From an uncultured virus (IMG/VR IMGVR_UViG_2049941000_000079) (lineage: Duplodnaviria > Heunggongvirae > Uroviricota > Caudoviricetes), in IMG/VR virus record IMGVR_UViG_2049941000_000079: DNA of 33,203 nucleotides; one strand, 5' to 3'. Every line of letters begins with the position of its first letter. The stretch's first letter is position 1. Positions 13,742 through 29,668 of this stretch are shown here, one piece after another. The translations under genes and the position numbers were made by a program. The notes beneath the pieces were generated by a model. That model did no database searches. It was not told where the DNA came from and saw only the letters and a program-made list of their open reading frames with translations.

Positions 13742-14172
13742 GTGATTACCCTTGTTTGAGAGATTACTTTGAACATGAGTGGATGGTAAAGACTATACCA
13801 CTCGGAACTACTTATGATGATTTTTGGCGGTTGAATCCTAGAAAAATCCTTGTCATGGTAGACGCATACAATGAAGCCAAGAAAAACGATGTACGGCAAC
13901 AGAATATGCTTTATCACCTTGAAGGTATGTATTTCATGGATGCCCTTGTTGCTGTTATAGGCAATATGTTTAAGGGAAAAGGACAAAGGCCGTATGAATA
14001 TCCTAAAGAGCCGTATACACTCGACCTTGAGTATGAAGAAGGTCTTGATATGTCAGACGATGCGGAAAAGGATATAGCATTAAAGCGCAGGAACTTTGTT
14101 ACACAACTTAACAATTTGTTCCGAGATATAGAGCCTATTGTAGAAAGAAAGAAGAAAAATGCCGAACATTGA
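13660..14172 (+). CDS. gpT-like frameshift extension of the tail assembly chaperone
   Basis: The -1 frame runs without stops into ORF 13756-14172 (FWRLNPR motif), which lacks its own good SD/ATG. Confidence 0.8.
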   Translation, partial: FFSVTQQGNGRGKRRDFNEECKEQKSISDYPCLRDYFEHEWMVKTIPLGTTYDDFWRLNPRKILVMVDAYNEAKKNDVRQQNMLYHLEGMYFMDALVAVIGNMFKGKGQRPYEYPKEPYTLDLEYEEGLDMSDDAEKDIALKRRNFVTQLNNLFRDIEPIVERKKKNAEH

Positions 14173-17100
14173 TACCTTATCAATACAATTTAACGCAAAT
14201 GGAACAGACAAGGCCGTAAATAACATCAAGGCAATGGGATATGCGGTGCGTAACCTTGCACAAAGCGTTAAGTCCATTGACTCATCAAAACTTGGTGCGT
14301 TTACGTCTTCCATGGAAACCCTTAAAAAGAGTATTCCGACAGAAGCACAGACAAAAAGAATGTCAGCCTTTAGCAATGCGATTAAAGAGTTGTCAGGTGT
14401 GATAGGTACGGCAAACATTTCAGGCTTTTCACGGGATATGTCTACACTTGGGGATGCGGTCAACACGTTCAAAAGGTCAAGTGTCAACTCGATCACGAAC
14501 GCAGTAACAGCAATGCAGAATCTTCAATCTCAAACACAGGCTACGGCAAAAACTATTTCCAATGCCGTACCTAAATCATCCGTGCCTATTGAAAGAGGTA
14601 ATAGGACAAATGAATCATTAAGTCAGGCAAAAGAACTTATTGCCACGCTTGATAAAGTTCAAATCAAGGCAACGGGTATTCAGGGTGTATTTCAGAAGAT
14701 GGGACTTGTTGTACCCACAAAGAGATTCAAAGACCTTGAAAATAGTGCTGAAAAGGTACGTCAGAAGTATGAAGAAGTACGTTCGGCTTTACAAAAAGGT
14801 CTTAACGAAGGATCACTTGAATCCGGCGGTACTGAATACAAGAAGAAGATGGCAGAACTTGATGCCCTTCGGAATAAGTACAATGAACTTATCCAGAAGC
14901 AGAGAGAACTTGCAAAAGAAGGGGGTGGGTTTACTCTTGCCCCCGGTCTTAAACAAGCGGCATCAAGCGCAAAGGCAATAGATTCAAGTTTTCGCTCTTT
15001 ATCAGGAGCATTAGGCACAGTCAGTAAAAAATTCAGTTCAATCATAAGCAAAGTGCGCTCATTTGGCTCTCACGCAAAGAGTACAAAGCGCGACACATCA
15101 TCTTTAGCAGACGCGGCAAAGAAGTTATCAAATGAGTTCTTCCGCGTATCTAAAATGCTTAAACTGATGATTACCCGTATGGCTTTAAGGGCTGTAATTA
15201 AAGAATTGGGTAATGGGTTTAAGTCATTAGCTTTACATTCCGAAGAGTTCAACAATAGCGTATCGGGAATGATGAACGCATCAAAGCAGTTAGGTTATTC
15301 TATTTCTGCTATGGTAAGTCCTCTTATCAATGCGTTTGCCCCGGCGATCATATATGTTATCAACTTACTTATTAAGTTGGCAAATGTCATACAACAAGTG
15401 TTTGGTGCGCTTACGGGTGCTACCACTTGGAATAAGGCAAAAGACTTTACGGAGTCATGGGCTGATAACATCAAGGCGGCAAATAAAGGTGCAAAGGAAC
15501 TTAAAAAGACCGTTCTTGGCTTTGATGAATTAAATCAGTTACAAGAGAAAACATCCGGCGGTGGCGGTAATGACATAGTCGATATGTTTGATACACAGCA
15601 AATCGACTCAAAATGGAAGAGCCTTGCCGATACTATAAAGAAATATGCGAACAAACTCTTTGATCCCATAAAGAAAGCATGGGAGAAAGTAGGTAACTTT
15701 GTTAAGAAGTCATGGAAGTATGCAATGGACGAGGTTCTTAAACTCGGATCATCCGTTGCGCGTGACTTCTGGAAGATGTGGGAGCAAAAAGCCACACAGC
15801 AGATATTTGAGAATATCCTTAAAATTGTTGGATATATCGGACAGACAGTAGGCAACCTTGCCCGTCAATTCCGTATTGCATGGGATGAAAACAATACCGG
15901 GTATAAGATACTTTGCAATATTCGTGACGTAGTTCTCACAATCACGGAACACTTAAAGAATATGGCAAAAGCCACGGCAGATTGGGCTGACACGCTTGAT
16001 TTTTCCCCTATTCTGACAAAGTTTAATGAATGGCTTGAAAGCATTAAACCCGTTGTAGATAACCTCATGGGAATAGTAGAGGACTTCTACACAACGGTTA
16101 TCCTGCCGCTTGGCAAATGGGCGGTAGAAGTGGGCGGCCCTAAATTACTGCAAGTATTCATTGATTTTAATGAAAAGGTAGATTGGGAAGGTTTACGTCA
16201 AAAACTTCAAACACTTTGGGAACATCTTGAACCGTTCATGGAAACCGTAGGGGAAGGTCTGATTATCTTTATAGACCGTGTAGCACAAGCACTTGCAGAC
16301 TTTATCAATAGTCCAGAGTTTGAGCAATTCCTCAAGGATGTTGAAGATTGGATGGATTCAGTTACACCACAAGACGTAGCTGATGGATTAGAAGCGATCG
16401 CGAAAGCAATAATTGCGTTTGCCATAGGTAAAACGGTTATAGATGGATTGATAGCAATATCATCTTTCTTAAAGCTAGTTTCTAGTCTTGCGCCGTTACT
16501 CAAATTAGCGTTAGTCATAAGCGTTGCGTACACGGGCTTTAAATTAGGTTCGTGGATTGGTAAGAAGATAACGGGCGATGATGAAACCTACGATAACTTT
16601 ACATGGTCGGCATTTATAGATGTAACTGTTCGCGGTGTAGAGACTTGGGAAGATTTTGCAGAGAGATTAACTGAATTAGCGGATGCATGGATGACAATGC
16701 GTAAAGAGGCTGATTGGTTTATACAATCAATAATGAGAATTGTTGAAGGCCCTGTTGCTTCATTTGTCCTAGATTTATTCGGAATCACAGAAGCAACAAA
16801 AAAGGCATCCGAAGAATCTGTTGGCTATAAGGAAAAACTCGAAGAATTAACGGAAAAAACAAAGAATCTTAAAGCCGAAAATGAAAACTCAAGTAAATCT
16901 TTCAGCGAAACGGTAGAAGGACTTAAAAAGGCAAGTGGCGAAGCATCAACCGCTACAACATCATTCTCAAAAGCGGCAGAGAATATTAAGAACGTAGGCA
17001 CGGAATCAAATAATGCGGCTTCATCCTTCATTAAAGTACATGAAGGAATAAAAGACGTTAATACAAGTGCGGAAGATTTATCAAAGGGTTATAACAATCT

Positions 17101-17863
17101 GAAAACAAATACGGATTCGCTTAAAACTGCCTTGAATGATGCAAATACTGCATATAAGAACGTCAAGGGTGCAATGGAACAGACCGTAAGTTACACCCCT
17201 GTTATGACAGATTCACAGAAGAAGATCGTGGATTCATTGTCGGGATTAAAGAAAGAAACCGAGGAAGTGCAACTTGCAACCGCAAATGCCGGACTTGATA
17301 TGCAGGGAACATGGACGGAGCTTTCAAAATCAACCAATACAAATATGGGCGATATCAAAAAGTCTGTTGATGAATCCATGAAGGACGTAAATAAGAGCCT
17401 TGATACCGTCAAAGATGCTATGTCTGAAAAGGAATGGACATTTGATGGTGTCGGAAGCGGTCTGACAAAAACCTTTGAAAAAGCCAAAGAAGGTATCAAG
17501 GGTGTATGGAATAGCATTGCCGAAAAACTGAATGGAGAACATTCTCTTGGCGAAGGAAAATTCAAGATCAACCTTCCGAAGTTTGCAACGGGTGGATTCC
17601 CGGAAGACGGTTTATTTATGGCTAATCACAATGAGTTAGTCGGTCACTTCTCGAACGGCAAGACCGCAGTAGCAAACAATCAGCAGATCATAGCCGGAAT
17701 AGAAACGGGTGTATATGCCGCAGTATCAAAGGCACTTTCACAGAATAACGGCGGTAGTCAGTATATCGCAAATGAGATCATTGTTGACGGCGATGTGATA
17801 GCAAGGTCTGTATCAAAGGCGCAGGAAAGACAAGGACGGAGATATAGTCCGTCTATGGCATGA
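14159..17863 (+). CDS. Tape measure protein
   Basis: 1234 aa, helical; GFDELNQL, W-spaced repeats, C-terminal FATGGFP..GLFMANHNELVG...TAVANNQQI. Confidence 0.93.
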   Translation: MPNIDTLSIQFNANGTDKAVNNIKAMGYAVRNLAQSVKSIDSSKLGAFTSSMETLKKSIPTEAQTKRMSAFSNAIKELSGVIGTANISGFSRDMSTLGDAVNTFKRSSVNSITNAVTAMQNLQSQTQATAKTISNAVPKSSVPIERGNRTNESLSQAKELIATLDKVQIKATGIQGVFQKMGLVVPTKRFKDLENSAEKVRQKYEEVRSALQKGLNEGSLESGGTEYKKKMAELDALRNKYNELIQKQRELAKEGGGFTLAPGLKQAASSAKAIDSSFRSLSGALGTVSKKFSSIISKVRSFGSHAKSTKRDTSSLADAAKKLSNEFFRVSKMLKLMITRMALRAVIKELGNGFKSLALHSEEFNNSVSGMMNASKQLGYSISAMVSPLINAFAPAIIYVINLLIKLANVIQQVFGALTGATTWNKAKDFTESWADNIKAANKGAKELKKTVLGFDELNQLQEKTSGGGGNDIVDMFDTQQIDSKWKSLADTIKKYANKLFDPIKKAWEKVGNFVKKSWKYAMDEVLKLGSSVARDFWKMWEQKATQQIFENILKIVGYIGQTVGNLARQFRIAWDENNTGYKILCNIRDVVLTITEHLKNMAKATADWADTLDFSPILTKFNEWLESIKPVVDNLMGIVEDFYTTVILPLGKWAVEVGGPKLLQVFIDFNEKVDWEGLRQKLQTLWEHLEPFMETVGEGLIIFIDRVAQALADFINSPEFEQFLKDVEDWMDSVTPQDVADGLEAIAKAIIAFAIGKTVIDGLIAISSFLKLVSSLAPLLKLALVISVAYTGFKLGSWIGKKITGDDETYDNFTWSAFIDVTVRGVETWEDFAERLTELADAWMTMRKEADWFIQSIMRIVEGPVASFVLDLFGITEATKKASEESVGYKEKLEELTEKTKNLKAENENSSKSFSETVEGLKKASGEASTATTSFSKAAENIKNVGTESNNAASSFIKVHEGIKDVNTSAEDLSKGYNNLKTNTDSLKTALNDANTAYKNVKGAMEQTVSYTPVMTDSQKKIVDSLSGLKKETEEVQLATANAGLDMQGTWTELSKSTNTNMGDIKKSVDESMKDVNKSLDTVKDAMSEKEWTFDGVGSGLTKTFEKAKEGIKGVWNSIAEKLNGEHSLGEGKFKINLPKFATGGFPEDGLFMANHNELVGHFSNGKTAVANNQQIIAGIETGVYAAVSKALSQNNGGSQYIANEIIVDGDVIARSVSKAQERQGRRYSPSMA

Positions 17864-17871
17864 GGTAAGTT

Positions 17872-18243
17872 ATGGCAAGAACAAAATATCCATTTAAGGT
17901 AAACGGAAATGATATGCCGTGTCCGAGTAAGTGCGACATAGGATATCAGGATATAAGTGCGCCGGATTCAGGACGTACACTTGATGGCTTAATGTGGAAA
18001 AACAAAATCGGTCAAAAGGTCAAACTCGATCTTGAATGGCTTGGGATATCGGATGAAGATGCGGCAACCATTTTACAAGCTTTTGATCCTGAATACATCA
18101 ACATTACATACCGGGATGCAAAACAGAACGCGGTTGTCACAAAAACCTTTTATACGGGCGATAGGAAAGCATCAACGTATTGGTGGAGTGATGATGATGA
18201 TATGACGTTTGCAAACATCGTATTTAACGTAATCGAAAGGTAA
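17872..18243 (+). CDS. Distal tail (Dit-like) protein
   Basis: Follows the tape measure gene; DSGRTLDGLM...FYTGDR motif. Confidence 0.75.
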   Translation: MARTKYPFKVNGNDMPCPSKCDIGYQDISAPDSGRTLDGLMWKNKIGQKVKLDLEWLGISDEDAATILQAFDPEYINITYRDAKQNAVVTKTFYTGDRKASTYWWSDDDDMTFANIVFNVIER

Positions 18244-18245
18244 GT

Positions 18246-20429
18246 ATGAAAGCGACTACACAGAAGTTCAAGCAAATAATGGCAAGTGGTAACTCAAGGG
18301 ATTATGTTGTTAAAGTTGACATAATCCTTGCAAATACCACGGTCTTACACTTGACCGAAGCCGATATGTGGGATGATTCGTTCAAGGTTGAAACGGCATC
18401 AAGTAGTACATCGTCATTCGACATTGGAACAGCCGTAATAGGACAGTGTAAGTTTTCACTTAACAACTTTGATGAGCGGTTCAATCAGTATGACTTCTTT
18501 AATGCCACGGCGGTAGTATATGTAGGTTTAAAGGGCGATGAAATAAACGGAGCGCAACAGTACGTTCGTTTTGGATTCTTCACAGTTGACGAACCGACAT
18601 TTGCCGGAGCATTGATTCAGCTTGTCCTGCTTGACAATATGTGGAAGTTTGACCGTCCACTCAATAACGTAAGCCTAACCTTCCCTATAAGCGCACAGAG
18701 CGCGGTTGTTGCAATCTGTCAGTATTGTGGAGTTACCTTACAGACACAGCAATTCCACGGGTACAATTTCTCAATCGCAGAAGCACCTAAAGATATGGAT
18801 AAGATGAATTGCCGTGAGTTCTTACAGTATGTGGCAATGATAGGGTGTAACTTCTGTATCATCAATGAGTACGGAGATTTAGTAATAAAATGGTATGATA
18901 CCGCACATATTCCGACCGAGAGTGATTTAGACGGCGGTACGTTCAATACGAACACAACCCCGTATTCAGACGGAGATTCGGCAGACGGCGGCAACTTTAC
19001 CAATTATTCAAGTGGAGATTCGGTAGATGGTGGTTCATTTAACAATAACCCGAATGTAGATTACTTCACGCGTAATTTCAATCTCACACTTGGTACAGAC
19101 GTTATTACAATCACGGGTGTCAAGTTTGTCATTGATGAAACAGCCTACACGATAGGTACGGAAGGGTACAGACTTGAACTTGAAAACCCCCTTGTCAATG
19201 CCGATAACGTCAATTCGGTGCTTAACCTTATATGGGATGTTTTAGAAGGTTTTTCATTAAGAACATTCAATTTGACGTGTGCATCAGACCTTGCGGTAGA
19301 AGTAGGCGATTGTTGTGCGATCAAGGATTACAAGGGCAACTACATCTATTCATGGGTTACAAATAATATTTTTGCCTTTTCAAAACATCAGGTACAATGC
19401 AATGCCATACCGCCCACAAGAACATTGACAAAACAATACTCAAAAGTGGTAAAAGCGGCGGTTGAACAAGCACGTAGGCAAACAGACGAACAAATCAGTA
19501 ACTACGATTTAGCCGTTCAAAGAATGAATCAGTTGGCGGCAAATGCATCAGGTTTGTATTGGATAGATGTACCGCAATCAGACGGCACTATCATTTACTA
19601 TGAGTCTGATAAACCGCTTTCGATTGATTCAAACGGCAATGTAGTATTTACTTATCATTCTCATGTTTGGAAAAAAACGGGTAGCGGGTTTTTCTCGACA
19701 GCCGATTCTGGTACATCCGAAGCAACAACTATATGGACGGGCGGCATAGACGCTAATAACAATGCCGTAATGAACACCATTTCAACAATCGGTATATCAT
19801 TTGATTGGGCGCATGGTGGTATTCTTACTCTTGGCGGTGATAATAACGTCAACGGTACATTGATTGTAAAAGATAGATACAACACCGAAATAGGCAGATG
19901 GAATAAAGACGGTATAAGTATATTAAAAGGTACTATATCCGGCCCAACTATATCGGGTGGTACTATTACAGGAACAAGCATATATGGTACGGAAATATCG
20001 GGCGGTAGTGTATCGGGTACTAATATAAGCGGTGGAACAATAAGAGGTACTGAAATATATGGTGGAGAGATATCAGGTGCAAGTATCACGGGTGGTACTA
20101 TCAACGGTACTACGATAACCTCACAGCATTCTAGTTATTATGATTGCTTTTACGAATTATCAGCAAATCAAATAGTCGGGTACAATCATGGGGCGCAAGT
20201 CGGATATCTCGATTGGGGCGGTTATGCAAACGGTCACGATTGCTTGGGTATTGCAGGACAAGGTATAAACATTTGGTGCGATCATATTTACTTTAATGCG
20301 CAGGAAGGTGTTTCACAACAAATAAGAGTAATGCACGATCTTGATATATATTTCGATAGTAAAAATTATACTATTGATGATATGTATATAACCTTCTACA
20401 AAGGTTTATGTACCGATGTTTATGTGTAA
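18246..20429 (+). CDS. Tail tip / baseplate hub (Tal-like) protein
   Basis: Follows Dit; hub-like N-terminus, DGGxF repeats, coiled coil, and ISGGT-type pentapeptide repeats near 19930-20120. Confidence 0.75.
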   Translation: MKATTQKFKQIMASGNSRDYVVKVDIILANTTVLHLTEADMWDDSFKVETASSSTSSFDIGTAVIGQCKFSLNNFDERFNQYDFFNATAVVYVGLKGDEINGAQQYVRFGFFTVDEPTFAGALIQLVLLDNMWKFDRPLNNVSLTFPISAQSAVVAICQYCGVTLQTQQFHGYNFSIAEAPKDMDKMNCREFLQYVAMIGCNFCIINEYGDLVIKWYDTAHIPTESDLDGGTFNTNTTPYSDGDSADGGNFTNYSSGDSVDGGSFNNNPNVDYFTRNFNLTLGTDVITITGVKFVIDETAYTIGTEGYRLELENPLVNADNVNSVLNLIWDVLEGFSLRTFNLTCASDLAVEVGDCCAIKDYKGNYIYSWVTNNIFAFSKHQVQCNAIPPTRTLTKQYSKVVKAAVEQARRQTDEQISNYDLAVQRMNQLAANASGLYWIDVPQSDGTIIYYESDKPLSIDSNGNVVFTYHSHVWKKTGSGFFSTADSGTSEATTIWTGGIDANNNAVMNTISTIGISFDWAHGGILTLGGDNNVNGTLIVKDRYNTEIGRWNKDGISILKGTISGPTISGGTITGTSIYGTEISGGSVSGTNISGGTIRGTEIYGGEISGASITGGTINGTTITSQHSSYYDCFYELSANQIVGYNHGAQVGYLDWGGYANGHDCLGIAGQGINIWCDHIYFNAQEGVSQQIRVMHDLDIYFDSKNYTIDDMYITFYKGLCTDVYV

Positions 20430-20901: not shown

Positions 20902-21123
20902 ATGGCAATACGAATGAGAAGGGGCAATGAGGCTGATCTTGATAAAACAAAGCTCGTATCAGGAGAAATAGCCGTAAGCATGGATGCGGATAAGGTAAGG
21001 GTTTCAAAGGGCAACGGAGAAACCATTGACCTTGCTACGCAAGAAGATTTACAGAACATCATTATCTATGATGGTGCTATTTCCGTAGTCGGAGAAACAC
21101 TCACATTTTCACCGAGAGAGTAA
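20902..21123 (+). CDS. Short fibre-anchor protein (Mtd/hyaluronidase N-terminal-like)
   Basis: MAIRMRRG......KL.SGEIAV..D motif; C-terminal VVGETLTF. Confidence 0.7.
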   Translation: MAIRMRRGNEADLDKTKLVSGEIAVSMDADKVRVSKGNGETIDLATQEDLQNIIIYDGAISVVGETLTFSPRE

Positions 21124-21134
21124 GGAGTTAAAAA

Positions 21135-22313
21135 ATGGCAGACATAAGCAAAGTCAGTATTGATGGTGGTACAACCGAATTAAATATTAAAGACGCAACA
21201 GCGAGACAAAACATAACAGAGATAAACAATAAAGTTGGAGCAAACAACGGTATTGCAAGTCTTAACGAATCAGGCAAAGTCCCGTCAAGTCAGTTACCTT
21301 CATATGTTGATGATGTTGTAGAAGGTTATCTTTATGAAGGAGATTTCTACAAAGACGCACTGCATCAAAATTTGATAACCCCAGAGACGGACAAGATATA
21401 CGTTGATTTGACCGAAGATAAAACGTATCGTTGGAGCGGATCAGTATATATATGTATAGGCGGCGGCCTTGAACTTGGAGAAACACAAGGTACGGCATAT
21501 GAAGGTAGTAAAGGAAAAGCAAACGCTGATGCTATAGAAGACATCAAAGATGTAATACCTTCTGGTGCTTCAAGTTCGAATAAACTCTTATCACATCAGG
21601 ATATAATTGATAATCTGACTTCTTATTCTTCTACGAAAGCCCTATCAGCTAAACAAGGTTATGAACTTAACAGTAAAATTCAACAATCTAATCTTGGAAA
21701 AGAAGATACGGAAAAACTTCTGAAAGATACGATAGGGTGGACTAGCAAGAATAGACTTCCGCTTACTCTTGCATCACTAAAGGCTATCAACACAGCCGGA
21801 ACATGGAATGATAATGCTTATACTATTGACGGTGTAACTTTTACTGTTAGCACTAATTCTGAAGGATATGTCACAAAAATCAATGTTGACGGTACGGCTT
21901 CATCAGGTATTGGTTTCAATCTCTTGAACGGCACATACGAAGGAGCGGAATATGAAACTTTGTTCCCGCTTGGATCATATTATTGGGTTACGGGTTGCGC
22001 TTCGGATGCTACAAGTTCTACATACTATTACAGATTCAGATTAGGTAGTATGTATGTCAGCGATCAAATAATTACGGGTGACGATCATATCAGTATTGAT
22101 AGTAGTGTGATAGAGCATAATCGAACTCTTATATTTGATATAAAGGTTAATTCAGGCGTATCTGTTTCAAATATAGAATTTTACCCACAATGGATGTATG
22201 GTCATTTGGAAGATAAATCATTTGAGCCTTACAATCAGACGGTCAAAGATAAATTGACATATACATATTCAAACGAAAGATTGACTTTTAATGGAATAGG
22301 AGCATCAACATGA
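21135..22313 (+). CDS. Tail fibre protein 1
   Basis: NIKDATAR N-terminus; GIASLNESGKVPSSQLPSYVDDV; DNLTS.S..KALSAKQG fibre repeat; C-terminal beta-rich domain. Confidence 0.75.
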   Translation: MADISKVSIDGGTTELNIKDATARQNITEINNKVGANNGIASLNESGKVPSSQLPSYVDDVVEGYLYEGDFYKDALHQNLITPETDKIYVDLTEDKTYRWSGSVYICIGGGLELGETQGTAYEGSKGKANADAIEDIKDVIPSGASSSNKLLSHQDIIDNLTSYSSTKALSAKQGYELNSKIQQSNLGKEDTEKLLKDTIGWTSKNRLPLTLASLKAINTAGTWNDNAYTIDGVTFTVSTNSEGYVTKINVDGTASSGIGFNLLNGTYEGAEYETLFPLGSYYWVTGCASDATSSTYYYRFRLGSMYVSDQIITGDDHISIDSSVIEHNRTLIFDIKVNSGVSVSNIEFYPQWMYGHLEDKSFEPYNQTVKDKLTYTYSNERLTFNGIGAST

Positions 22314-22642
22314 AACAACCAATAACACGGTTATTCCGATACATAAAAAAAACAAAAGCAAAACGAAATAAAAAAGTGAGAGCCTTTTATTTTAAGGCTC
22401 TTTTACTTTGCATAGAAATATATGGAATGGCGGCACTTGGGATGTCATACTACTTGGCCTATTTGGGAAGGGATATAGTTCTCGAAGAACTTTCAAAAAC
22501 CATTGTTAAAGTCCTGATATATCCTTTTGTGGCATACACAATCAATCGGACGATTGAAAATTATGCGGAACACAACATCACACAGTTTCACAAGCCATTA
22601 AGTGAAACACCTATTGAAGAAAGCGAGGAAGCAGACGGATGA
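22310..22642 (+). CDS. Two-TM membrane protein (holin/antiholin-like)
   Basis: Basic N-terminus and two hydrophobic segments; directly upstream of the holin. Confidence 0.6.
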   Translation: MKQPITRLFRYIKKTKAKRNKKVRAFYFKALLLCIEIYGMAALGMSYYLAYLGRDIVLEELSKTIVKVLIYPFVAYTINRTIENYAEHNITQFHKPLSETPIEESEEADG

Positions 22643-22944
22643 ACACAGAGTTAATCACAAAGTTAGTTGAAGCGGTTGTAACGGTAGTAATTGTCTTAAT
22701 ATCGGCTTATGTTATCCCGTGGTTAAAAGGCAAAATCGGGGATGACAAGTACGCAACGATAGTAGAGTTTGCCGAGATCGTTGTTCGGTCTGCCGAGAAA
22801 ATCTATACCATAGAAGAATGGGCGCAAAAGAAAAGATATGCCGTTGAAATGGTACAGAAAAAAGCAGAAGAAATCGGCATAACCATAACACCTGATGAAA
22901 TCAATGCGATTATCGAAGGTGCGGTACAGGCGGTAAAGGGGTAA
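22639..22944 (+). CDS. Holin, LL-H family
   Basis: One N-terminal TM (AYVIPWLK), V.SAEKIY...KK.YA...IEGAV. Confidence 0.8.
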   Translation: MNTELITKLVEAVVTVVIVLISAYVIPWLKGKIGDDKYATIVEFAEIVVRSAEKIYTIEEWAQKKRYAVEMVQKKAEEIGITITPDEINAIIEGAVQAVKG

Positions 22945-23022
22945 TTANNNNNNNNNNNNNNNNNNNNNNNNNNNNNNNNNNNNNNNNNNNNNNNNNNNNN
23001 NNNNNNNNNNNNNNNNNNNNNN

Positions 23023-24324
23023 AAACAAGAGTTTATCGAAGCAATAGCAAAATCGGTTATCAAGTATGCGCCGCAGTTTAACATTAAATGTTATAGTGCG
23101 GTAATAGGTCAGGCTTGTTGTGAAAGTGGTTATGGTACGTCACCCAAAGGGCAGAGGAACAACTTTTTTGGCTTAAAGTATCGTGAAGGACGTGTGACTT
23201 GCCACAACGGTACGTTTATTGACGGATCAAAAGAGCAAAGGTCAGACGGACACTATGATGATATAGTTGATTCATGGTATACGTTCGAAACCCTTGATAA
23301 AGGTGTGCTTGGGTATTTTCAATTTATCAATACTGTCAATTACGCATCAGTCAAGGGAGTTACAGACCCCAAACAGTATCTTACAAACCTTCGTGCGGCA
23401 GGGTATGCTTCAAGCCTTGACTATGTTGAGACAGTAATGAAGTATATTGCCGACAATGGTTTAACCAAGTATGACGATGTAAGCACTCCGTTAAAGTCCT
23501 TTTTCAAGGTAGCGGTGGATGCCGGACACGGAAGTAACACGGGCGGCAAGAGAACACCCGATGGCTACCGCGAGCATTGGATAAACGTATCGTGTGCATC
23601 ATATTGTGAGCAAGCATTAAGACGTTGCGGCATAGACGTTTTAAGGGTTGCTTGGGATGATAACAACGCCAAAGATGATGAGGACGTGGCACTTTCTACA
23701 CGGCAGAAACTTATCAAGGCAAACAAATGCGATGCGTCAGTATCATTCCATGCAAATGCGGCAGGAGTTGGCGGTTGGAGTGATGCAAGTGGGGTAGAAA
23801 CCCTGATAAGCGACAAATACCCGGCAGACTCTCGTAACCTTGCAAACATGGTACAAAAACATCTTGTCGAAGGAACACCGCAGAAGAATAGGGGTGTAAA
23901 GACACAATCCCTTGCTATGTGTAACTGTAATGCGCTCGGAACAAAGGCGGCAATCCTTTGCGAGATAGGATTTATGACAAACAAGGCAGAAGCCGACCTG
24001 ATGAAAACGGATAAGTTCTGCAAGGAACAAGCAGAAGATGTCACAAAGGGAATATGTGAATACTTGGGTGTGAAATACATTCCTATCAACGAAGAGTCGG
24101 TTATAACCGAAGTAGTTACGCAATCCCAAAACACACCGATAGGCTATCTTGTGAAGATCAACACGGACATACTGAATGTGAGAGCAGGGGCAGGAACGTC
24201 ATACCCGGTTGTCACACAAGTGCGGAGAGGACAGATTTATACAATCGTGGATGAAGTAAAAGGTTGGGGAAAACTCAAAAGCGGTGCAGGGTGGATTAAA
24301 CTATCCTATACCACAAAAATATAG
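23023..24324 (+). CDS. Endolysin: GH73 glucosaminidase + Amidase_3 + SH3b (start lies in gap 22948-23022)
   Basis: Frame open from 23023: QACCESGYG...NNFFGLK...GYASSLDY; VDAGHG...E...SFHANA...AILCEIGFMTN; LNVRAGAGT...GWGKLKSGAGWI. Confidence 0.92.
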   Translation, partial: KQEFIEAIAKSVIKYAPQFNIKCYSAVIGQACCESGYGTSPKGQRNNFFGLKYREGRVTCHNGTFIDGSKEQRSDGHYDDIVDSWYTFETLDKGVLGYFQFINTVNYASVKGVTDPKQYLTNLRAAGYASSLDYVETVMKYIADNGLTKYDDVSTPLKSFFKVAVDAGHGSNTGGKRTPDGYREHWINVSCASYCEQALRRCGIDVLRVAWDDNNAKDDEDVALSTRQKLIKANKCDASVSFHANAAGVGGWSDASGVETLISDKYPADSRNLANMVQKHLVEGTPQKNRGVKTQSLAMCNCNALGTKAAILCEIGFMTNKAEADLMKTDKFCKEQAEDVTKGICEYLGVKYIPINEESVITEVVTQSQNTPIGYLVKINTDILNVRAGAGTSYPVVTQVRRGQIYTIVDEVKGWGKLKSGAGWIKLSYTTKI

Positions 24325-24349: not shown

Positions 24350-24370
24350 GTATCAAGGTATACAAGTGAC

Positions 24371-24398
24371 GGACACGGGGTTTCCCGTGTCCTTTTTT
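24371..24398 (+). terminator. Intrinsic terminator
   Basis: ggacacggg-gttt-cccgtgtcc followed by T6. Confidence 0.8.
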
Positions 24399-24409
24399 GA
24401 GGACAAAAA

Positions 24410-24730
24410 ATGATTATTCGGGGAACAACACCTTCTATATCGTTTCATATAAACACCGAGTTAGACCTTACTGAAATAGCGGAAGTGTGGATCACTTTCA
24501 AGGCTAAATTCGGTACAGAGATCAATGAAAAGACATTCACCATTGAGGATGTAACCATTGATGCAGAGCATAACAACATCAATCTCTTTATGTCGCAGGA
24601 AGATACGTTATCACTTTCAGACAACCCGTACTATGTCCAAATAAGGTTACGCATGAATGACGATATGGCTTATGCTTCGGGAATCCTTGAAGAGCCAATA
24701 GGCAAGATATTAAAGGACGGGGTTATATGA
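24410..24730 (+). CDS. BppU N-terminal-like baseplate/fibre attachment protein
   Basis: MIIRGTTP...SQEDTL.L...VQIR...ILKDGVI pattern. Confidence 0.65.
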   Translation: MIIRGTTPSISFHINTELDLTEIAEVWITFKAKFGTEINEKTFTIEDVTIDAEHNNINLFMSQEDTLSLSDNPYYVQIRLRMNDDMAYASGILEEPIGKILKDGVI

Positions 24731-25008
24731 ATGGTGTATTACGACTTGATGTATCTATTCAGACAGAAAACTACATAGACGTTGATGTAAAGTCCGGCAC
24801 AAAAGTGTTGGACTTTTCTATTGAAGGAAACAAAGATGCTAGGTTGCCGTATTACAACGGAGAATACGGAGTAGAGCCTAGAAAAGTAGGGCAGACACTT
24901 GAAACCGCAAACAAGAGTATGAGCGAAAACGTAGTGATAAACCCTATTTATTATGCGGAAACAACAAATGTAGGCGGTGGCTACACGGCGATAATTGGAA
25001 AGGAGTAA
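24727..25008 (+). CDS. Small fibre-associated structural protein
   Basis: YNGEY.VEP...QTL.T.NK.M.ENV.I.PI; C-terminal GGYTAIIG. Confidence 0.7.
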   Translation: MNGVLRLDVSIQTENYIDVDVKSGTKVLDFSIEGNKDARLPYYNGEYGVEPRKVGQTLETANKSMSENVVINPIYYAETTNVGGGYTAIIGKE

Positions 25009-25014
25009 CACACA

Positions 25015-25620
25015 ATGGCAAGTAACCCTTATGTAAACAAAGTTATTTTCGGAAATGACGTTCTTATTGATCTGACAAGTGATACAGTTACGGCGGCAGA
25101 TATCTTATCAGGCAAGACCGCACATGATAAATCCGGCGCGGCAATCACGGGTGAATGTACCTTTGATTCCGATACAACGGATGCGGATGCGAGTGCAAGT
25201 GAGATACTTTACGGACAGAGTGCCTATGTCAACAAGAACAAACTTGTAGGAACAATGCCAAACCGGGGCGGTGTTACGGGTTCTATTTCAACAGTAGCCG
25301 GGGAGTACACCATTCAGGAAGGTTATCACGATGGTTCAGGTAAGGTTGCCATTGATTCAACCGAACAGGCAAAGATCATCCCTTCAAACATCCTTCAGGG
25401 TGTAACAATTCTCGGTGTTCAGGGTAGTGTTGAACCTTCTTCTGATGTTCATATCGAGCCTACAAAATCAGCAACACCTTATACAACTTCACAGACAATA
25501 CTTCCTTCGAGCGGATATGACGCAATCGCAGAAGTTACCATAGCGGCTATAACAAAGACCGAGACAGATAACGCATCTGGCGGTAAAACTGTGCAGATTG
25601 GCGATTTAGCACCTTCGTAA
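25015..25620 (+). CDS. Fibre-associated repeat protein
   Basis: NKV.FG...LIDLTSDTVT; IL.G..A repeats; GTMPNRG; GYHDGSG; NIL.GVTILGV.G. Confidence 0.75.
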   Translation: MASNPYVNKVIFGNDVLIDLTSDTVTAADILSGKTAHDKSGAAITGECTFDSDTTDADASASEILYGQSAYVNKNKLVGTMPNRGGVTGSISTVAGEYTIQEGYHDGSGKVAIDSTEQAKIIPSNILQGVTILGVQGSVEPSSDVHIEPTKSATPYTTSQTILPSSGYDAIAEVTIAAITKTETDNASGGKTVQIGDLAPS

Positions 25621-25632
25621 AGGGGTGGTCTT

Positions 25633-25836
25633 ATGGCAAGCAACCCTTACGTTAACAAGGTTCAATTTGGCGATGAAACGCTGATTGACCTTACAAGCGA
25701 TACAGTAACACCCGATAAAGTGCTTAATGGTGTGACGTTCCATGATAAAAGTGGAGCGTTACAAACAGGCACTTTAACACCTATGTCGAGCAAGTTTACA
25801 TACGCAAACAATAGACTTACATTGAATGTTCCTTAA
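25633..25836 (+). CDS. Short paralog of the 25015 N-terminus (putative adaptor)
   Basis: MASNPYVNKVQFG..LIDLTSDTVT...HDKSGA shared with 25015; different C-terminus. Confidence 0.75.
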   Translation: MASNPYVNKVQFGDETLIDLTSDTVTPDKVLNGVTFHDKSGALQTGTLTPMSSKFTYANNRLTLNVP

Positions 25837-25848
25837 AGGAGAATAAAA

Positions 25849-27210
25849 ATGCCTAACTATATGACAGAATTAAGTCCTGATAATAATACTCATGTATACC
25901 AGATAAAGGATAAGGAAGCATCCCCTATTGACCTACTCAAAGACACAGTAGGGTGGGTTGGGAAGAATAAATTACCTTTGGGTACAATATGGCATCTAAA
26001 TAATATGTCTGATTTTAATGGACTTAATACAGATGGTGAAACTACAAGGGCAAGAACAACACCTGCGTTTGAATTTCCGTTCCCGAGTCAGACATTCATT
26101 ATAAGTGGCTTGCCCTCAAAAGTAACCGAATTGAATGCAAATAATGGTGTTAGATGTTTTGATGCGAATAAAAATGATTTAGGCAAAGCCGATATCAATG
26201 GATTTCAATTCACAACAAAGGCAAATACCGCATACATATACATTATGGTAAATGGCGCGAATTTTACTGTTGCCGATTTTACGTCAGCAAACGTAATGAT
26301 CCGTCCTGCATCCATCATAGATGATACCTACGAGCCTTACCATAAGAGCGTAGAAGAAGTAGTAGAGCAGGTGTATGCGGATAATGGGGTATTAGGTGCG
26401 AAGAATTTACTTCGTTATCCTTATTGGAATACCACAAAAACCGAGAGTGGTATTACATTTACAGACAATAATGATGGTACAGTAACGGCAAACGGAACGG
26501 CAACCGCAGACGCATATTTCAGATTTGCATCTTCTGCATCAAATGCACCTGCATATACCTTGCCGAGTGGCGATTATATCTTATCGGGTAAGGGTCTTGT
26601 ATCGGGTGCGTCTATCGTTTGTGAAGCCTACAACGGCACAACCTACGTTAAGTCATTGTTAACGCTTACAAGTGGTACACCATCGGGTACATTGACCATT
26701 GATAATATCGGTTATGATCGACTTGCAATCTTCCTTAAAGTAAGCAATGCAAGCACGATATCAAACGCTAATGTTAAACCCATGCTCCGTCTTGCAAGTG
26801 ATCCCGATGATACCTATGTTCCCTATGCTATGACTAATAGGGAATTGACGGAGTTGGCTACAGCACAGGAGAGTGCAATTACTGATATTATAAGTGGGGC
26901 AACAGTTGATACAGGGGCAAGCGGAAACAAACTTGTCAAAATAGGCAAAATTGTCTTTTTGAGATTATCTCTTAAAACTGTCACAGCAACAGCATATTCC
27001 GATAATTTGGGTGTAATACCAAGTGGATACAGACCAACAAGCAATCTATTTATCAATGCGTTTGGTACAAATGTAAAAATAGGCTCAAATGGAAATATTC
27101 AATCTGCGATAGCAAAGCCATTAAGTNNNNNNNNNNNNNNNNNNNNNNNNNNNNNNNNNNNNNNNNNNNNNNNNNNNNNNNNNNNNNNNNNNNNNNNNNN
27201 NNNGTTGTAG
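25849..27210 (+). CDS. Tail fibre / receptor-binding protein 2 (3' end uncertain, gap)
   Basis: Two tandem KN.L...DDTY.PY domains, related to fibre 1, plus a KIGKIVFL...IPSGYRP RBP-head-like motif. Confidence 0.7.
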   Translation: MPNYMTELSPDNNTHVYQIKDKEASPIDLLKDTVGWVGKNKLPLGTIWHLNNMSDFNGLNTDGETTRARTTPAFEFPFPSQTFIISGLPSKVTELNANNGVRCFDANKNDLGKADINGFQFTTKANTAYIYIMVNGANFTVADFTSANVMIRPASIIDDTYEPYHKSVEEVVEQVYADNGVLGAKNLLRYPYWNTTKTESGITFTDNNDGTVTANGTATADAYFRFASSASNAPAYTLPSGDYILSGKGLVSGASIVCEAYNGTTYVKSLLTLTSGTPSGTLTIDNIGYDRLAIFLKVSNASTISNANVKPMLRLASDPDDTYVPYAMTNRELTELATAQESAITDIISGATVDTGASGNKLVKIGKIVFLRLSLKTVTATAYSDNLGVIPSGYRPTSNLFINAFGTNVKIGSNGNIQSAIAKPLSXXXXXXXXXXXXXXXXXXXXXXXXXXL

Positions 27211-28582: not shown

Positions 28583-28653
28583 GTGATAAAAATGGATTTG
28601 AAAAAGTTATGCGAAAAAGTATTAGAGAATGAGGAAGTAAAAGATATTCCTCT
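28583..28653 (+). CDS. 5' part of a small hypothetical gene (rest in gap; probably ends at 30556-30576)
   Basis: SD AAGGGAG; MDLKKLCEKVLENEEVKDIP. Confidence 0.5.
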
Positions 28654-29485
28654 NNNNNNNNNNNNNNNNNNNNNNNNNNNNNNNNNNNNNNNNNNNNNNN
28701 NNNNNNNNNNNNNNNNNNNNNNNNNNNNNNNNNNNNNNNNNNNNNNNNNNNNNNNNNNNNNNNNNNNNNNNNNNNNNNNNNNNNNNNNNNNNNNNNNNNN
28801 NNNNNNNNNNNNNNNNNNNNNNNNNNNNNNNNNNNNNNNNNNNNNNNNNNNNNNNNNNNNNNNNNNNNNNNNNNNNNNNNNNNNNNNNNNNNNNNNNNNN
28901 NNNNNNNNNNNNNNNNNNNNNNNNNNNNNNNNNNNNNNNNNNNNNNNNNNNNNNNNNNNNNNNNNNNNNNNNNNNNNNNNNNNNNNNNNNNNNNNNNNNN
29001 NNNNNNNNNNNNNNNNNNNNNNNNNNNNNNNNNNNNNNNNNNNNNNNNNNNNNNNNNNNNNNNNNNNNNNNNNNNNNNNNNNNNNNNNNNNNNNNNNNNN
29101 NNNNNNNNNNNNNNNNNNNNNNNNNNNNNNNNNNNNNNNNNNNNNNNNNNNNNNNNNNNNNNNNNNNNNNNNNNNNNNNNNNNNNNNNNNNNNNNNNNNN
29201 NNNNNNNNNNNNNNNNNNNNNNNNNNNNNNNNNNNNNNNNNNNNNNNNNNNNNNNNNNNNNNNNNNNNNNNNNNNNNNNNNNNNNNNNNNNNNNNNNNNN
29301 NNNNNNNNNNNNNNNNNNNNNNNNNNNNNNNNNNNNNNNNNNNNNNNNNNNNNNNNNNNNNNNNNNNNNNNNNNNNNNNNNNNNNNNNNNNNNNNNNNNN
29401 NNNNNNNNNNNNNNNNNNNNNNNNNNNNNNNNNNNNNNNNNNNNNNNNNNNNNNNNNNNNNNNNNNNNNNNNNNNNNNNNNNNNC

Positions 29486-29668
29486 CCCAACAAGGCGCAG
29501 TTCTTCTCGCAGAAGTTCAACGTAGCATTACCGCAGAACATAAACACCGGGTACGATGCCGTACAGTTTATGCTTAACAAAGGTATGCTCACGCAGGATC
29601 AGGTGAACAATGCTATGAAAATGAGCAATCATCCGTTGTTTCAAAGGTTTATAAATAGGGGGAAATAA
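29486..29668 (+). CDS. 3' part of a small Q/N/M-rich helical protein (5' part probably 31458-31510)
   Basis: PNKAQFFSQKFNVALPQNIN..YDAVQFMLNKGMLTQDQVNNA. Confidence 0.65.
   Translation, partial: PNKAQFFSQKFNVALPQNINTGYDAVQFMLNKGMLTQDQVNNAMKMSNHPLFQRFINRGK

Follow-up and report, generated by a model that had tools for sequence, protein, structure and literature searches.

Genes of the module and their terminal domains

The window, by which we mean the whole stretch of 33,203 nucleotides analysed, holds a complete siphophage structural module, as judged by Pfam and PHROG searches, and a fibre module which sits after the endolysin gene and a terminator-like hairpin. All the genes and motifs of the window described below lie on the plus strand. 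The first gene of the fibre module, 24410 (24410..24730), encodes a 106-residue Ig-like beta-sandwich and shares an ATGA overlap with the following gene, 24727. The protein matches phrog_15594 (E 4e-18), and a conserved C-terminal ILKDGVI is found in many of its relatives. The top VIA matches of its AF2 model (pLDDT 93, pTM 0.81) include the N-terminal region of TP901-1 BppU (4v96_AA, Z 9.1, rmsd 2.9, 100 residues aligned); further matches are the Sf14 neck (9c39_I, Z 9.1) and the 80alpha baseplate (6v8i_BJ, Z 9.0). BppU 3uh8_A scores Z 7.5, neck proteins Z 8.6-9.1 and antibody V domains Z 7.4-8.4, and the best Foldseek E is 2.8e-3. At Pfam E<=0.1 24410 yields two stray weak matches and nothing else, and 44 relatives searched at Pfam E<=0.01 yield three single stray matches, a baseplate family being hit in 0/44. 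By sequence, the identification of 24410 as BppU was discarded, as the protein ends after the sandwich and is devoid of the helical linker and of the RBP-holding C-terminal domain. Judging from the model, 24410 would be an Ig-like domain of the type that forms rings in BppU and FibU, and we infer that it is the anchor.

The base protein 24727 (24727..25008) is 93 residues long. Its N-terminal half is variable, and its C-terminal 48 residues form a domain, called unit c or D1, in which the motif ETTNVGGGYTAIIG spans 24958..24999 (residues 78-91). The protein ends in AETTNVGGGYTAIIGKE. The same domain closes the next protein, 25015, which ends in TETDNASGGKTVQIGDLAPS and carries the motif ETDNASGGKTVQIG at 25561..25602 (residues 183-196). 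The preliminary description had placed a common C-terminal motif on these two proteins, and rightly so: when the last 48 residues of 24727 (46-93) were compared with residues 149-197 of 25015 by hhalign, the two profiles matched with a probability of 96.7% and E 4.4e-10, far beyond chance. The shared domain, about 48 residues long, has the signature ExxNxxGGxTxxIG; N81, G85 and T87 of 24727 are invariant across a family alignment of 53 sequences. 24727 matches phrog_31538 (E 3e-12) and has the ~50-residue C-terminal pattern of the base family, Y.G.Y.VTP..Q.L.T..K.M..DV.V..IPY.E..N..GG.T..IG. D1 is found behind many unrelated N-terminal domains. In the longer proteins carrying it the phrog_31538 match is confined to the C-terminus in 12 cases out of 12, and one such protein is at the same time a head-tail connector (Phage_connect_2, E 8.7e-42; one clade). 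A motif-HMM scan of 86 sources located D1 at most 12 residues from the stop in all 132 matches having a stop.

The shaft protein 25015 (25015..25620; 201 residues) is made of the A1 hairpin, unit a, one unit b of ~85 residues, and unit c/D1. Its A1 head (25015..25155, residues 1-47) consists of MASNPYVNKVIFGNDVLIDLTSDTVT plus unit a, and is shared with the next protein, 25633, which begins MASNPYVNKVQFGDETLIDLTSDTVT; the signature common to the two 47-residue heads is NKVxYG..LIDLTxDT. 25015 matches phrog_13589 over its full length (positions 734-938 of 1042, E 2.8e-47) and has the conserved A1 head and D1 end of the shaft family; the start of 25015 and 25633 align to identical positions of this profile, 734-780. 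Thus, as had been described, both proteins have the same type of N-terminus, and 25015 bears the two halves of the connector. Near-length homologues of 25015 fall into at least 7,999 clusters, and in 44 sequences the invariant residues are N8, K9, D19 and D23 in A1, and N186, G190, T192 and I195 in D1. In the same scan of 86 sources A1 lies at most 30 residues from the start of the open frame in 163 of 168 matches. Among longer proteins it is internal in 8 of 48 matches; A1 is thus no free N-terminal plug but a domain. The view of connector type 1 as a pair of bare peptides has to be abandoned, though the motifs are where they had been placed: the donor is a domain of ~48 residues, the acceptor a head of ~47.

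The AF2 monomer of 25015 is extended (pLDDT 78, pTM 0.37), with strands at 9-12 and 15-19 in A1 and a D1 hairpin at 181-185 and 191-195. Residues 1-60 score only 54-70; that the most conserved part of the protein, the A1 head, has the lowest pLDDT is expected for a segment folding on a partner. No PDB match was obtained with Foldseek (best E 1.5), and no chain at Z>=2 among 48,161 in a wide VIA search, but these blanks say little about the fold, because the model is extended. A sequence-profile search of the PDB returned a left-handed beta-helix acyltransferase as the sole weak match (E 0.005), Pfam and PDB searches assigned no domain and no solved structure to the shaft module family, and BFVD relatives of 25015 carry the label 'Tail protein'. 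Self-polymerisation of 25015, suggested earlier, is not borne out by 160 loci, in each of which exactly one shaft gene was seen; longer shafts are built by repeats inside one polypeptide.

The adaptor 25633 (25633..25836) is a 67-residue protein composed of the A1 head (residues 1-47) and of a second kind of tail, D2, with the motif FTYANNRLTL at 25795..25824 (residues 55-64); it ends in FTYANNRLTLNVP. Its role as adaptor, proposed from the window, is in line with its membership in a family of head-plus-tail proteins: the head is common to 99 homologues (36-118 residues) with at least 8 tail classes, and the small A1-headed adaptors, 60-117 residues long, combine one head with at least 8 tail types. 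FTYANNRLTL is kept in five of them (P0241-P0245) and resembles the tails of 21135 and P0379. The 80 loci retrieved from viral contigs matched the head only (residues 1-56 or 4-63 at most), so the link of this exact tail to the next gene rests on the window and on related D2 pairs. The latter gene, 25849 (25849..27210), encodes a 453-residue tip protein, and is N-masked at the 3' end. The A2 motif VYQIKDKEA occupies nt 25894-25920 (residues 16-24), and is followed by a neck, LLKDTVGWVGKNKLPL, and by head domains with relatives in the C-terminal half of 21135 (BLASTP, neck E 8e-6; head E 9e-5, with 27% identity over 154 residues). The tips found behind A1 measure 54 to 1,195 residues, which, with the many tails set on one adaptor head, bears out the notion of interchangeable tips.

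D2 and A2 also occur in the canonical fibre set of the window. 20902 (20902..21123) is a 73-residue adaptor: residues 1-50 form an Mtd_N-like head, the D2 tail, ISVVGETLTF, lies at nt 21079-21108, and the protein ends in ISVVGETLTFSPRE. Residues 3-39 match Mtd_N (PF18454) with E 2.1e-5 and 24.8 bits, under the gathering cut-off of 26.3 bits; the likeness is genuine, though below the curated threshold. The fibre protein 21135 (21135..22313, 392 residues) starts with the A2 head MADISKVSIDGGTTELNIKDATAR (nt 21135-21206), which contains ELNIKDATAR (residues 15-24). Residues 157-185 are a Phage_fiber_rpt (PF22337; 29.6 bits, over the 27-bit cut-off), and the D2-like YTYSNERLTF (nt 22260-22289) lies in the C-terminus, YTYSNERLTFNGIGAST. 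25633 and 21135 match by BLASTP at E 0.003. The motifs of this second connector had been correctly located on 20902, 21135, 25633 and 25849. Being only 10 and 6 residues long, they are weak evidence on their own, and are backed by outside loci. 20902 has 91 relatives, the small ones with D2-like tails, and such tails are borne by two head types, in the 20902 family (P0340-45, P0379) and on A1-headed adaptors. An N-terminal A2 regex run on 3,856 ORFs gave five matches, all adjoining a preceding gene, the stop of which is -29 to +12 nt away; in other loci proteins of the type MADISK..Y.IKDA.AR come after proteins ending in ..DETL(V/I)L... The A2 head type of 21135 was also found in L010 and L032; in a viral-contig search with 21135 two loci were retrieved, with matches limited to the head domain.

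Gene order, natural fusions and rival readings

The order variable anchor-D1, A1-shaft-D1, A1-variable tip is conserved in most of ~240 related phage and prophage loci from gut and rumen Clostridia. A1 occurs within 90 nt after D1 in 115 of the 133 terminal D1 matches of the motif-HMM scan. Among 52 dereplicated loci, a D1 end was found on the gene before the shaft in 40 by HMM and in 2 more by regex, and an A1 start on the gene after it in 43. The complete x-D1, A1-D1, A1-x arrangement is present in 47/80 viral loci, which had been picked by the A1 head, and in 52/80 species-level genome loci (counted by hand from the table) spanning Lachnospiraceae, Oscillospiraceae, Ruminococcaceae, Erysipelotrichaceae, Negativicutes and others. 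Terminal motifs linking consecutive genes are therefore recurrent in many unrelated phages. One clade has no adjacent base gene; in both of the 2 genomes examined from it D1 is found 25 kb upstream in the same prophage, beside the terminase.

In the window 24727, 25015, 25633 and 25849 share one frame, and are separated by single TAA codons and gaps of 6-12 nt, as might be seen in one long fibre gene expressed by stop readthrough, or in a pseudogene broken by stops. Each gene has, however, its own Shine-Dalgarno-like sequence and ATG, frames differ in L001-L003, and the split form recurs in hundreds of loci, the at least 7,999 homologue clusters mentioned above being stand-alone proteins of ~200 residues. 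We rejected this reading, which is hardly credible. The position of the genes after a holin or endolysin gene, near the integrase end, in the window, in L005 and in a Hungatella-type clade, and the terminator-like hairpin which precedes 24410, may also recall a moron, that is, a prophage-encoded surface or accessory system expressed from the lysogen and acting outside the virion. This is very improbable: in many loci (L001, L009, L011, L017) these genes are found between the tail genes and the lysis cassette, one clade has D1 as part of a head-tail connector protein, 24410 has a fold like that of ring-forming virion domains, and signal peptides and cell-wall anchors were not noticed on reading the sequences. 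In the Oscillospiraceae phage NatCom_27610 the same four genes are located between a 'tail protein' gene and the holin.

Natural fusions, for which the preliminary description had proposed to look, were found for both junctions. In P0123 and P0141 D1 is followed in frame by unit a. In P0387 and P0389 the 20902 head (65% identity, E 7e-15) is joined via 8 residues to the 21135 body (72% identity, E 4e-40), and the D2 tail and the A2 head are both missing; residues 34-119 of 21135 and 59-144 of P0387 are 72% identical. In L216 the Ig-like anchor is itself fused with unit c/D1.

Co-variation of D1 with the following A1, shaft versus tip, is weak (Mantel r 0.15); within one protein D1 and A1 give a higher value (r 0.34), which reflects shared descent. 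The A1 heads of shaft and tip have a mean identity of 0.51 within a genome and 0.44 between genomes, and since they are almost alike within a genome the order of the parts is not obviously fixed. Similar heads and the lack of specific D1-A1 co-variation speak for a branched assembly, in which shaft, adaptor and tip bind one hub (base, ring or connector) in parallel through A1, and D1 is a unit c cap. Orphan A1 tips located far from any D1 gene (L010 6891, L023 8237, L068 7043) and L226, in which the base is directly followed by the tip with no shaft, point in the same direction, and branched systems as a rule carry conserved N-terminal anchors on more than one receptor-binding protein, according to the available text of PMC13579863. 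Yet D1, which would then be useless, is kept on every shaft and is as conserved as A1, the fused proteins put unit a straight after D1, and D1 and A1 are equal in number in the commonest architecture. We regard branching as unlikely.

The similarity of shaft and tip heads within a genome is concerted, 0/2,000 permutations reaching the observed value, and favours another reading. The motifs might be folding or oligomerisation caps, and conserved stretches guiding recombination between fibre cassettes, rather than contact surfaces, neighbours sharing them because cassettes are swapped at such borders. Tips diverge abruptly past the conserved 47-residue head, and D2-like tails end complete fibres with no A2 partner gene behind (21135, P0387, P0389, P0405). 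Moreover, in L260, L266 and L313 the adaptor tail recurs at the C-terminus of the next protein, which a C-terminal cap for folding or trimerisation would explain no less well than a socket. This reading is rather improbable, as proteins of 60-75 residues consisting of head and tail alone have a structural role only if both ends are bound, and P0387 and P0389 have dropped D2 and A2 exactly where a covalent link replaces them. Furthermore, the tail class and the type of N-terminus encoded by the following gene go together: in two loci each, ISVxGxxMTI is followed by M.xxxKINGVTY, ..A(E/T)(V/E)xAYLG.. by MDVKDKLVT, D..GY(I/L)CQT by ..RI(L/I)TD(E/A)T.Q.I, and D2-like tails by Y.IKD..AR. The D2 and GY(L/I)CQ tails of A1-headed adaptors recur on Mtd_N-headed small proteins; adaptors with a GSG.PS..LG..GD.YL tail are followed by at least three unrelated N-termini.

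Proposed assembly and attachment

Module homology, terminal placement, conserved order, shuffling and fusions provide comparative genomic support for docking, and the end motifs probably let fibre parts snap together and be swapped. With a slight leaning in its favour, we read the 24410-27210 region as encoding a single virion appendage of a temperate siphophage, the hosts being gut Clostridia; it would consist of five separately translated polypeptides held together by D1-A1 and D2-A2 docking. The Ig-like, ring-forming 24410 would act as anchor. The base protein 24727 would offer its portable docking domain, D1, to the matching A1 head of the shaft 25015, which would present D1 again at its end; the A1 head of 25633 would bind there, and this converter would expose D2, to which the A2 head of the receptor-binding tip 25849 would attach. 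The contacts would probably be made by extending beta-sheets from one oligomeric assembly, most likely a trimer, to the next. 20902 and 21135 would use the same D2/A2 joint with a different, Mtd_N-like head.

The appendage could be mounted on the baseplate or on the neck. The earlier description of 24410 as a BppU-like anchor stands at the level of the Ig-like fold. The site may be the neck rather than the baseplate, the Sf14 neck being matched as well as BppU, and D1 being fused in one clade with a head-tail connector protein. More tentatively, and as a possibility that we would not yet favour, phages of gut and rumen Clostridia may share a kit of portable 'universal joints' (D1/A1, D2/A2, GY(L/I)CQ with RI(L/I)TD.T.Q, and others), from which fibres would be assembled combinatorially, with plug/socket converters of 60-75 residues, anchors resting on a ring domain or a head-tail connector, and cassettes mountable at baseplate or neck.

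To our knowledge, almost nothing has been characterised of the way in which phages of the dominant gut Firmicutes recognise their hosts. The module family is very large, as the shaft homologue clusters indicate, and extends to many families of Clostridia and beyond. If the joints are true, they would explain how receptor-binding tips are exchanged without disturbing the rest of the tail, would mark protein-to-protein boundaries for structure prediction, and would be natural plug-in points for host-range studies in laboratory strains. The fused P0387 and the split 20902 and 21135 offer a clean natural experiment on how non-covalent joining may take the place of a covalent link.

Relation to known fibre systems

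The module family and its motif strings are not mentioned in the literature searched. A term search of the available text of the Heliusvirales paper (PMC11283538) gave no mention of tail fibres, and searches for the Oscillospiraceae phage and NatCom returned only unrelated soil papers. In chaperone-usher pili a subunit has its sheet completed or extended by a terminal beta element of its neighbour, an incomplete Ig fold being filled by the N-terminal extension of the following subunit with the help of a dedicated chaperone and usher. The resemblance of the fibre to donor-strand complementation, noted by the preliminary description, is one of analogy: D1 and A1 are each predicted to be complete beta-hairpins in the AF2 monomer, which shows no missing strand, and Pfam and PHROG searches of the window revealed no chaperone or usher homologue. 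The long tail fibre of T4 (gp34-gp35-gp36-gp37) is made of separate polypeptides joined end to end. The likeness would lie in one fibre being built from separate polypeptides; Pfam, PHROG and PDB searches detected no homology to the window proteins. We know of no reuse of T4 joints as portable modules on many unrelated proteins, nor of converters of 60-75 residues in T4.

In the podophages GP4, VP1 and A1002 small fibre subunits dock by an augmented beta-sheet with the dock domain of another protein, as described in the available text of PMC13730344. The contact is of the kind that D1 and A1 hairpins may establish, but there, in a different phage type and host, the dimers are lined up next to one another along a lengthy 'rope' protein, and not head to tail. 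The branched receptor-binding systems of Klebsiella and related phages, as far as the available part of PMC13579863 goes, combine conserved N-terminal anchors with exchangeable C-terminal parts in a plug-and-play manner. They rely on tailspike anchors and branching domains, whereas here the head is matched by the C-terminal domain of the preceding protein, and tiny converters occur. In TP901-1 BppU-BppL, the neck passage structure (NPS) and 80alpha FibU/FibL, Ig-like N-terminal domains arranged in a ring hold the fibres, and the receptor-binding protein is a separate one that docks on the holder's C-terminal part (PMC10747895, in the portion available). BppU and the 80alpha baseplate are among the best fold matches of the 24410 model, and the gene comes after the tail-tip genes, as in those systems. 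Pfam searches found no sequence relation of BppU, BppL or NPS to the window proteins, and a counterpart of D1, A1, D2 or A2 in the structures of these systems was not found in the searches made. The putative ring domain is here a free-standing protein of 106 residues, unlike in those systems, and up to four more polypeptides would share the part of the holder. The novelty surmised for phage fibres must accordingly be narrowed: fibres made of several polypeptides are already known, from T4 and from TP901-1, and it is the proposed use of portable joints, with converters between them, that stands as a variant.

The probable fibre genes and their modules

The window corresponds to the part of a siphophage or prophage that encodes structure and lysis. 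A terminase large subunit (3067-4374), an SPP1-type portal (5713-7149) and a Mu-F-like protein are followed by the major capsid protein Phage_cap_E (9409-10456), a major tail protein with a cadherin-like domain (12571-13326), the tape measure (14159-17863), a DUF6711 protein (17872-18243) and a 727-residue tail protein (18246-20429). The Phage_cap_E coding sequence is divided between ORFs 9409-9840 and 9635-10456, which overlap in different frames; a frameshift, a programmed shift or an error in sequencing could account for this. A first fibre set, formed by genes 20902 and 21135 (73 and 392 residues; genes are named by their start coordinates), precedes the holin (22639-22944) and the amidase/SH3 endolysin (23194-24324). 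A second module of five plus-strand genes, 24410 (106 residues), 24727 (93), 25015 (201), 25633 (67) and 25849 (453), lies 3' of the endolysin and of a hairpin resembling an intrinsic terminator (24370-24398, before 24410; an inverted repeat rich in G+C with a T run behind it), so it may be a transcription unit of its own. Runs of masked N occur at 22945-23080, 27130-27210 and 28650-29500; one deprives 25849 of its last ~27 codons, and another covers most of a gene at about 28.6-29.6 kb. The five genes quite probably encode parts of one virion appendage, with 24410 as anchor, 24727 as base, 25015 as shaft, 25633 as adaptor and 25849 as tip.

Genes 24727, 25015, 25633 and 25849 share one frame, with a single TAA stop and 6-12 nt between one gene and the next, an arrangement expected by chance about once in 27 and not kept in three related loci (L001-L003). 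Readthrough or a broken gene was rejected: each gene has its own ribosome-binding site and ATG, related loci differ in frame, and the split form is the rule.

The preliminary description viewed matched terminal motifs as docking pairs chaining separate polypeptides into one fibre, and all the motifs that it quoted are present in the window sequence at their assigned places. In the type 1 connector a C-terminal module ending in ExxNxxGGxTxxIG (D1; 24727, 25015) would pair with an N-terminal head, NKVxYG..LIDL (A1; 25015, 25633). In type 2 a short C-terminal tail of the FTYANNRLTL kind (D2) would pair with N-terminal IKDxxA (A2; 25849, 21135). The type 1 likeness extends well past the 14 residues first noted. 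By hhalign with a 53-sequence profile of the 24727 family, the last 48 residues of 24727 align with residues 149-197 of the 25015 family (probability 96.7%, E 4.4e-10), and the two proteins thus end in one homologous domain, unit c/D1. The N-terminus common to 25015 and 25633 spans ~47 residues, the NKVxYG..LIDL hairpin and a DTVTxxxLxGxTAHDxSGxxxTG unit, and matches identical positions of phrog_13589 in both.

The 25015 family counts at least 7,999 near-length clusters in a homology search; no Pfam domain was found in it, and its gut-virome relatives in BFVD are labelled 'Tail protein'. Longer relatives, 247 in number, are built of repeat units: the A1 hairpin, unit a (~30 residues), unit b (~85 residues, '..DATA.A..IL.GKTAY..G.K.TGTM.N.G....Y.IP.GYH.GSGKV.I...E.AK.I..NI..GV.ILGV.G') and unit c, which ends in D1. 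25015 is the minimal form, A1-a-b-c-D1. From the mean pLDDT of 78 and the pTM of 0.37 of its AF2 model (44 sequences), 25015 is predicted to be an extended chain of small beta units, where A1 (strands 9-12 and 15-19) and D1 (strands 181-185 and 191-195) are both hairpins. Residues 1-60 are the most conserved, yet have the lowest pLDDT (54-70). Structure and PDB sequence-profile searches found no solved structure resembling the model.

Order of the modules across related loci

The same four genes have been identified in Oscillospiraceae phage NatCom_27610, between a 'tail protein' and the holin, and in two human-faecal phage contigs. In NatCom_27610 (L001, 9687-10988) a gene annotated as 'DNA invertase' lies ~3 kb downstream of the fibre genes. 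Motif HMMs made from the 25015 alignment were used for a six-frame scan of 86 sources. All D1 matches having a stop (132/132) have it no more than 12 residues away, 163 of 168 A1 matches lie at most 30 residues from the beginning of their open frame, and A1 follows terminal D1 by at most 90 nt in 115 of 133 cases. When shaft genes were dereplicated to 52, the gene on the 5' side ended in D1 in 40 by HMM and in 2 more by regex (5 lacked D1, 5 were at an edge), and the gene on the 3' side started with A1 in 43 (8 lacked it, 1 was at an edge); visible divergence of the motif or faulty ORF calling explains several of these misses (L005, L010, L048, L050). Among 80 viral loci picked solely by the A1 head, the order [x-D1][A1-D1][A1-x] is found in 47, the two-gene order [A1-D1][A1-x] in 24 and partial or other arrangements in 9; a manual count of loci from species-level genomes gave the three-part order in 52 of 80. 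In line with the expected co-occurrence of donors and acceptors, a D1-ending gene usually precedes one that starts with A1 in these loci. Hosts include Lachnospiraceae, Oscillospiraceae, Ruminococcaceae, Hungatella hathewayi, Clostridium leptum, Erysipelotrichaceae and Phascolarctobacterium; binning errors probably underlie some MAG labels, for instance Bacteroides or E. coli. Among the prophages with the module are those of Clostridium leptum DSM 753 and of the Lachnospiraceae isolate AM48-27BH. Tips appear interchangeable, as had been proposed: those headed by A1 are 54-1,195 residues long and mutually unrelated, some carrying BspA-type leucine-rich repeats. In one locus (L226, 2700-3860) a D1 base is directly followed by a 277-residue A1 protein lacking D1, with no shaft gene between.

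A1 heads of shaft and tip are more similar within than between genomes (0.506 versus 0.436; 0 of 2,000 permutations reach the observed value), and D1 of base and shaft barely so (0.444 versus 0.428; 29/2,000 permutations). Co-variation of shaft D1 with tip A1 is weak (Mantel r 0.15, versus 0.34 for D1 and A1 of the same protein). Given this and the similar heads, the joints look generic, and do not in any evident way fix the order of the parts. A parallel, branched arrangement is equally allowed by joints of this kind.

Short adaptors, their tails and fused genes

The notion that 25633 is a head-plus-tail adaptor holds across its 99 homologues (36-118 residues), which have a common 47-residue head and at least eight classes of short tail: 'FTYANNRLTLNVP', the class of the window, '..SGDFDDL.NRPTFTVSNETLIFG', 'GIDGDNLGYG..VGSAIVG', 'SVSGTNLSLV', 'YYTGSS.P.SSLG..GDIYL', 'LTTEHLNALRAIIQG', 'ITYDGSVITVS' and 'GVQIPVP.SGTNSF..'. 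One homologue of 94 residues (P0302) reads A1-a-c-D1. The 20902 family (91 matches) has an Mtd_N-like head, located at the N-terminus of long fibres or on proteins of 67-94 residues with short tails. Tails of the small proteins may be D2-like ('TVVNETLVF', 'RVENGTLIF' and, in P0379, 'LSYSYSNGRLIFNN', which is close to the C-terminal end of 21135). The 'GY(L/I)C(Q/F)' class is found both on small 20902-family proteins and on A1-headed adaptors; the two types of head thus draw on common types of tail.

Tail class and the start of the next protein go together in several cases: 'ISV.G..MTI' precedes 'M.xxxKINGVTY' (L003, L244), a helical '..AYLG..' precedes 'MDVKDKLVT' (L177, L189), 'D..GY(I/L)CQT' precedes '..RI(L/I)TD(E/A)T.Q.I' (L070, L086), and D2-like tails precede 'Y.IKD..A(R)' twice in the window and in L200. 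In L010 and L032, proteins of 179 and 130 residues that end in 'LTEDETLVLTTN' and 'ELEDETLILNRN' precede ones starting with the 21135 head, 'MADISKITLPSG.TY.IKDA.ARQ'. A regex for A2 has 14 distinct matches in 3,856 ORFs, 5 of which lie inside the first 35 residues, all 5 preceded by a gene ending -29 to +12 nt upstream. As a counter-example, however, adaptors with 'GD.YL' tails precede at least three unrelated N-termini. L032 (1047-4319) and L010 (969-3697) encode two consecutive long fibre proteins, both with a 'M A (D/N) I S .. (L/I) P (S/N) G. T Y. I K D' head; as the A1/D1 module is present in these phages too, the two connector systems can coexist in one phage on separate fibre sets, which is also the case in the window.

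Natural fusions, whose existence had been put forward as a check, have been found for both types. In P0387 and P0389 the 20902 head (residues 1-50, 65% identity, E 7e-15) is N-terminal and, 8 residues further on, gives way to the 21135 body (residues 59-144 versus 34-119, 72% identity, E 4e-40). Missing from both are the 23 C-terminal residues of 20902, with D2, and residues 1-33 of 21135, with A2; thus both motifs appear exactly where a gene border replaces the covalent link. These fusions are the strongest indirect sign that D2 and A2 may hold 20902 and 21135 together. In type 1 fusions (P0123, P0141) '..GSVR..(A/I)DL.NDT(V/I)T..' and unit a come in frame after D1.

A different role for the tails is allowed by three loci (L260, 2501-3359; L266; L313) in which the next protein ends in a nearly exact copy of the short tail of an Mtd_N-headed adaptor (such as 'ATDKGSGVVELTIS' and 'ATDKGSGIVEISATV'), a pattern also shown by the window pair 20902/21135; folding or trimerisation at the C-terminus could therefore be what the tail serves for. 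Complete fibres (21135, P0387, P0389, P0405) end in a D2-like tail with no A2 gene behind, and A1 is internal in 8 of 48 matches among longer proteins. The docking interpretation is partly supported, by modules, gene order and fusions, and is weakened by the poor D1-A1 co-variation and the exceptions to pairing. On balance we lean slightly towards the terminal motifs being physical joints of a serial fibre.

Proposed anchors and relation to known fibres

The AF2 model of 24410 is an Ig-like sandwich (pLDDT 93, pTM 0.81). In a VIA wide search its best matches were the N-terminal region of TP901-1 BppU (4v96_AA; Z 9.1, rmsd 2.9, 100 residues aligned), a neck protein from phage Sf14 (Z 9.1), a chain of the 80alpha baseplate (Z 9.0) and a portal-adaptor-associated chain of phage R4C (Z 8.6), with antibody domains ranking within one Z unit of these; the best Foldseek E was 2.8e-3. 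The label 'BppU-like' holds for the Ig-like fold, but membership of the family cannot be claimed. According to an AF2 study of TP901-1, N-terminal domains of BppU, FibU/FibL and the neck passage structure form rings round tail or neck (PMC10747895). The modelled 24410 fits this ring-forming kind of domain, baseplate and neck being both possible locations. Many 24410-family proteins have a conserved end, '..(R/E)(I/V)LK(D/E)GVI', and an ATGA overlap with the next gene, and in L216 (5196-6002) one protein joins a 24410-type Ig-like domain to unit c/D1. The conserved end and this fusion may point to a third joint, anchor to base, missing from the preliminary description.

In an exception clade (~24 viral loci and several genomes) the shaft comes directly after a holin-like gene, and the base protein is absent. 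In both genomes checked for a distant D1 (Hungatella hathewayi DSM 13479 and Lachnospiraceae AM48-27BH) the base-family profile matches at a second place as well, 25 kb upstream of the shaft and beside the terminase (L249, 1141-1725, Hungatella hathewayi; L248, 1483-2067). The 194-residue product is Phage_connect_2 in residues 22-128 (E 8.7e-42) and unit c/D1 at the C-terminus, and also matches phrog_4247, 'virion structural protein'; this clade thus has D1 as well, as a graft on a head-tail connector protein, from which a neck position of the appendage would be predicted. In these loci an integrase adjoins the shaft and tip genes. Further longer D1 proteins bear other unrelated N-terminal domains, and the 12 tested (12/12) match phrog_31538 at the C-terminus only; the L216 fusion is one such longer D1 protein. 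D1 thus behaves as a portable C-terminal module.

The long tail fibre of T4 is assembled from several polypeptides. The same is established for BppU-BppL (PMC10747895), for the beta-sheet-augmented chain-like fibres of podophages (PMC13730344) and for the branched systems of Klebsiella phages (PMC13579863). Multi-polypeptide fibres as such are therefore already known. In a search of main texts, largely from outside the subscription journals, neither a description of the terminal modules reported here nor any occurrence of six motif strings was found. What seems to be new is a set of portable terminal modules that is very widespread and unannotated, the existence of tiny proteins made up of head and tail alone, and the mounting of the same modules on both ring-type and connector-type anchors.
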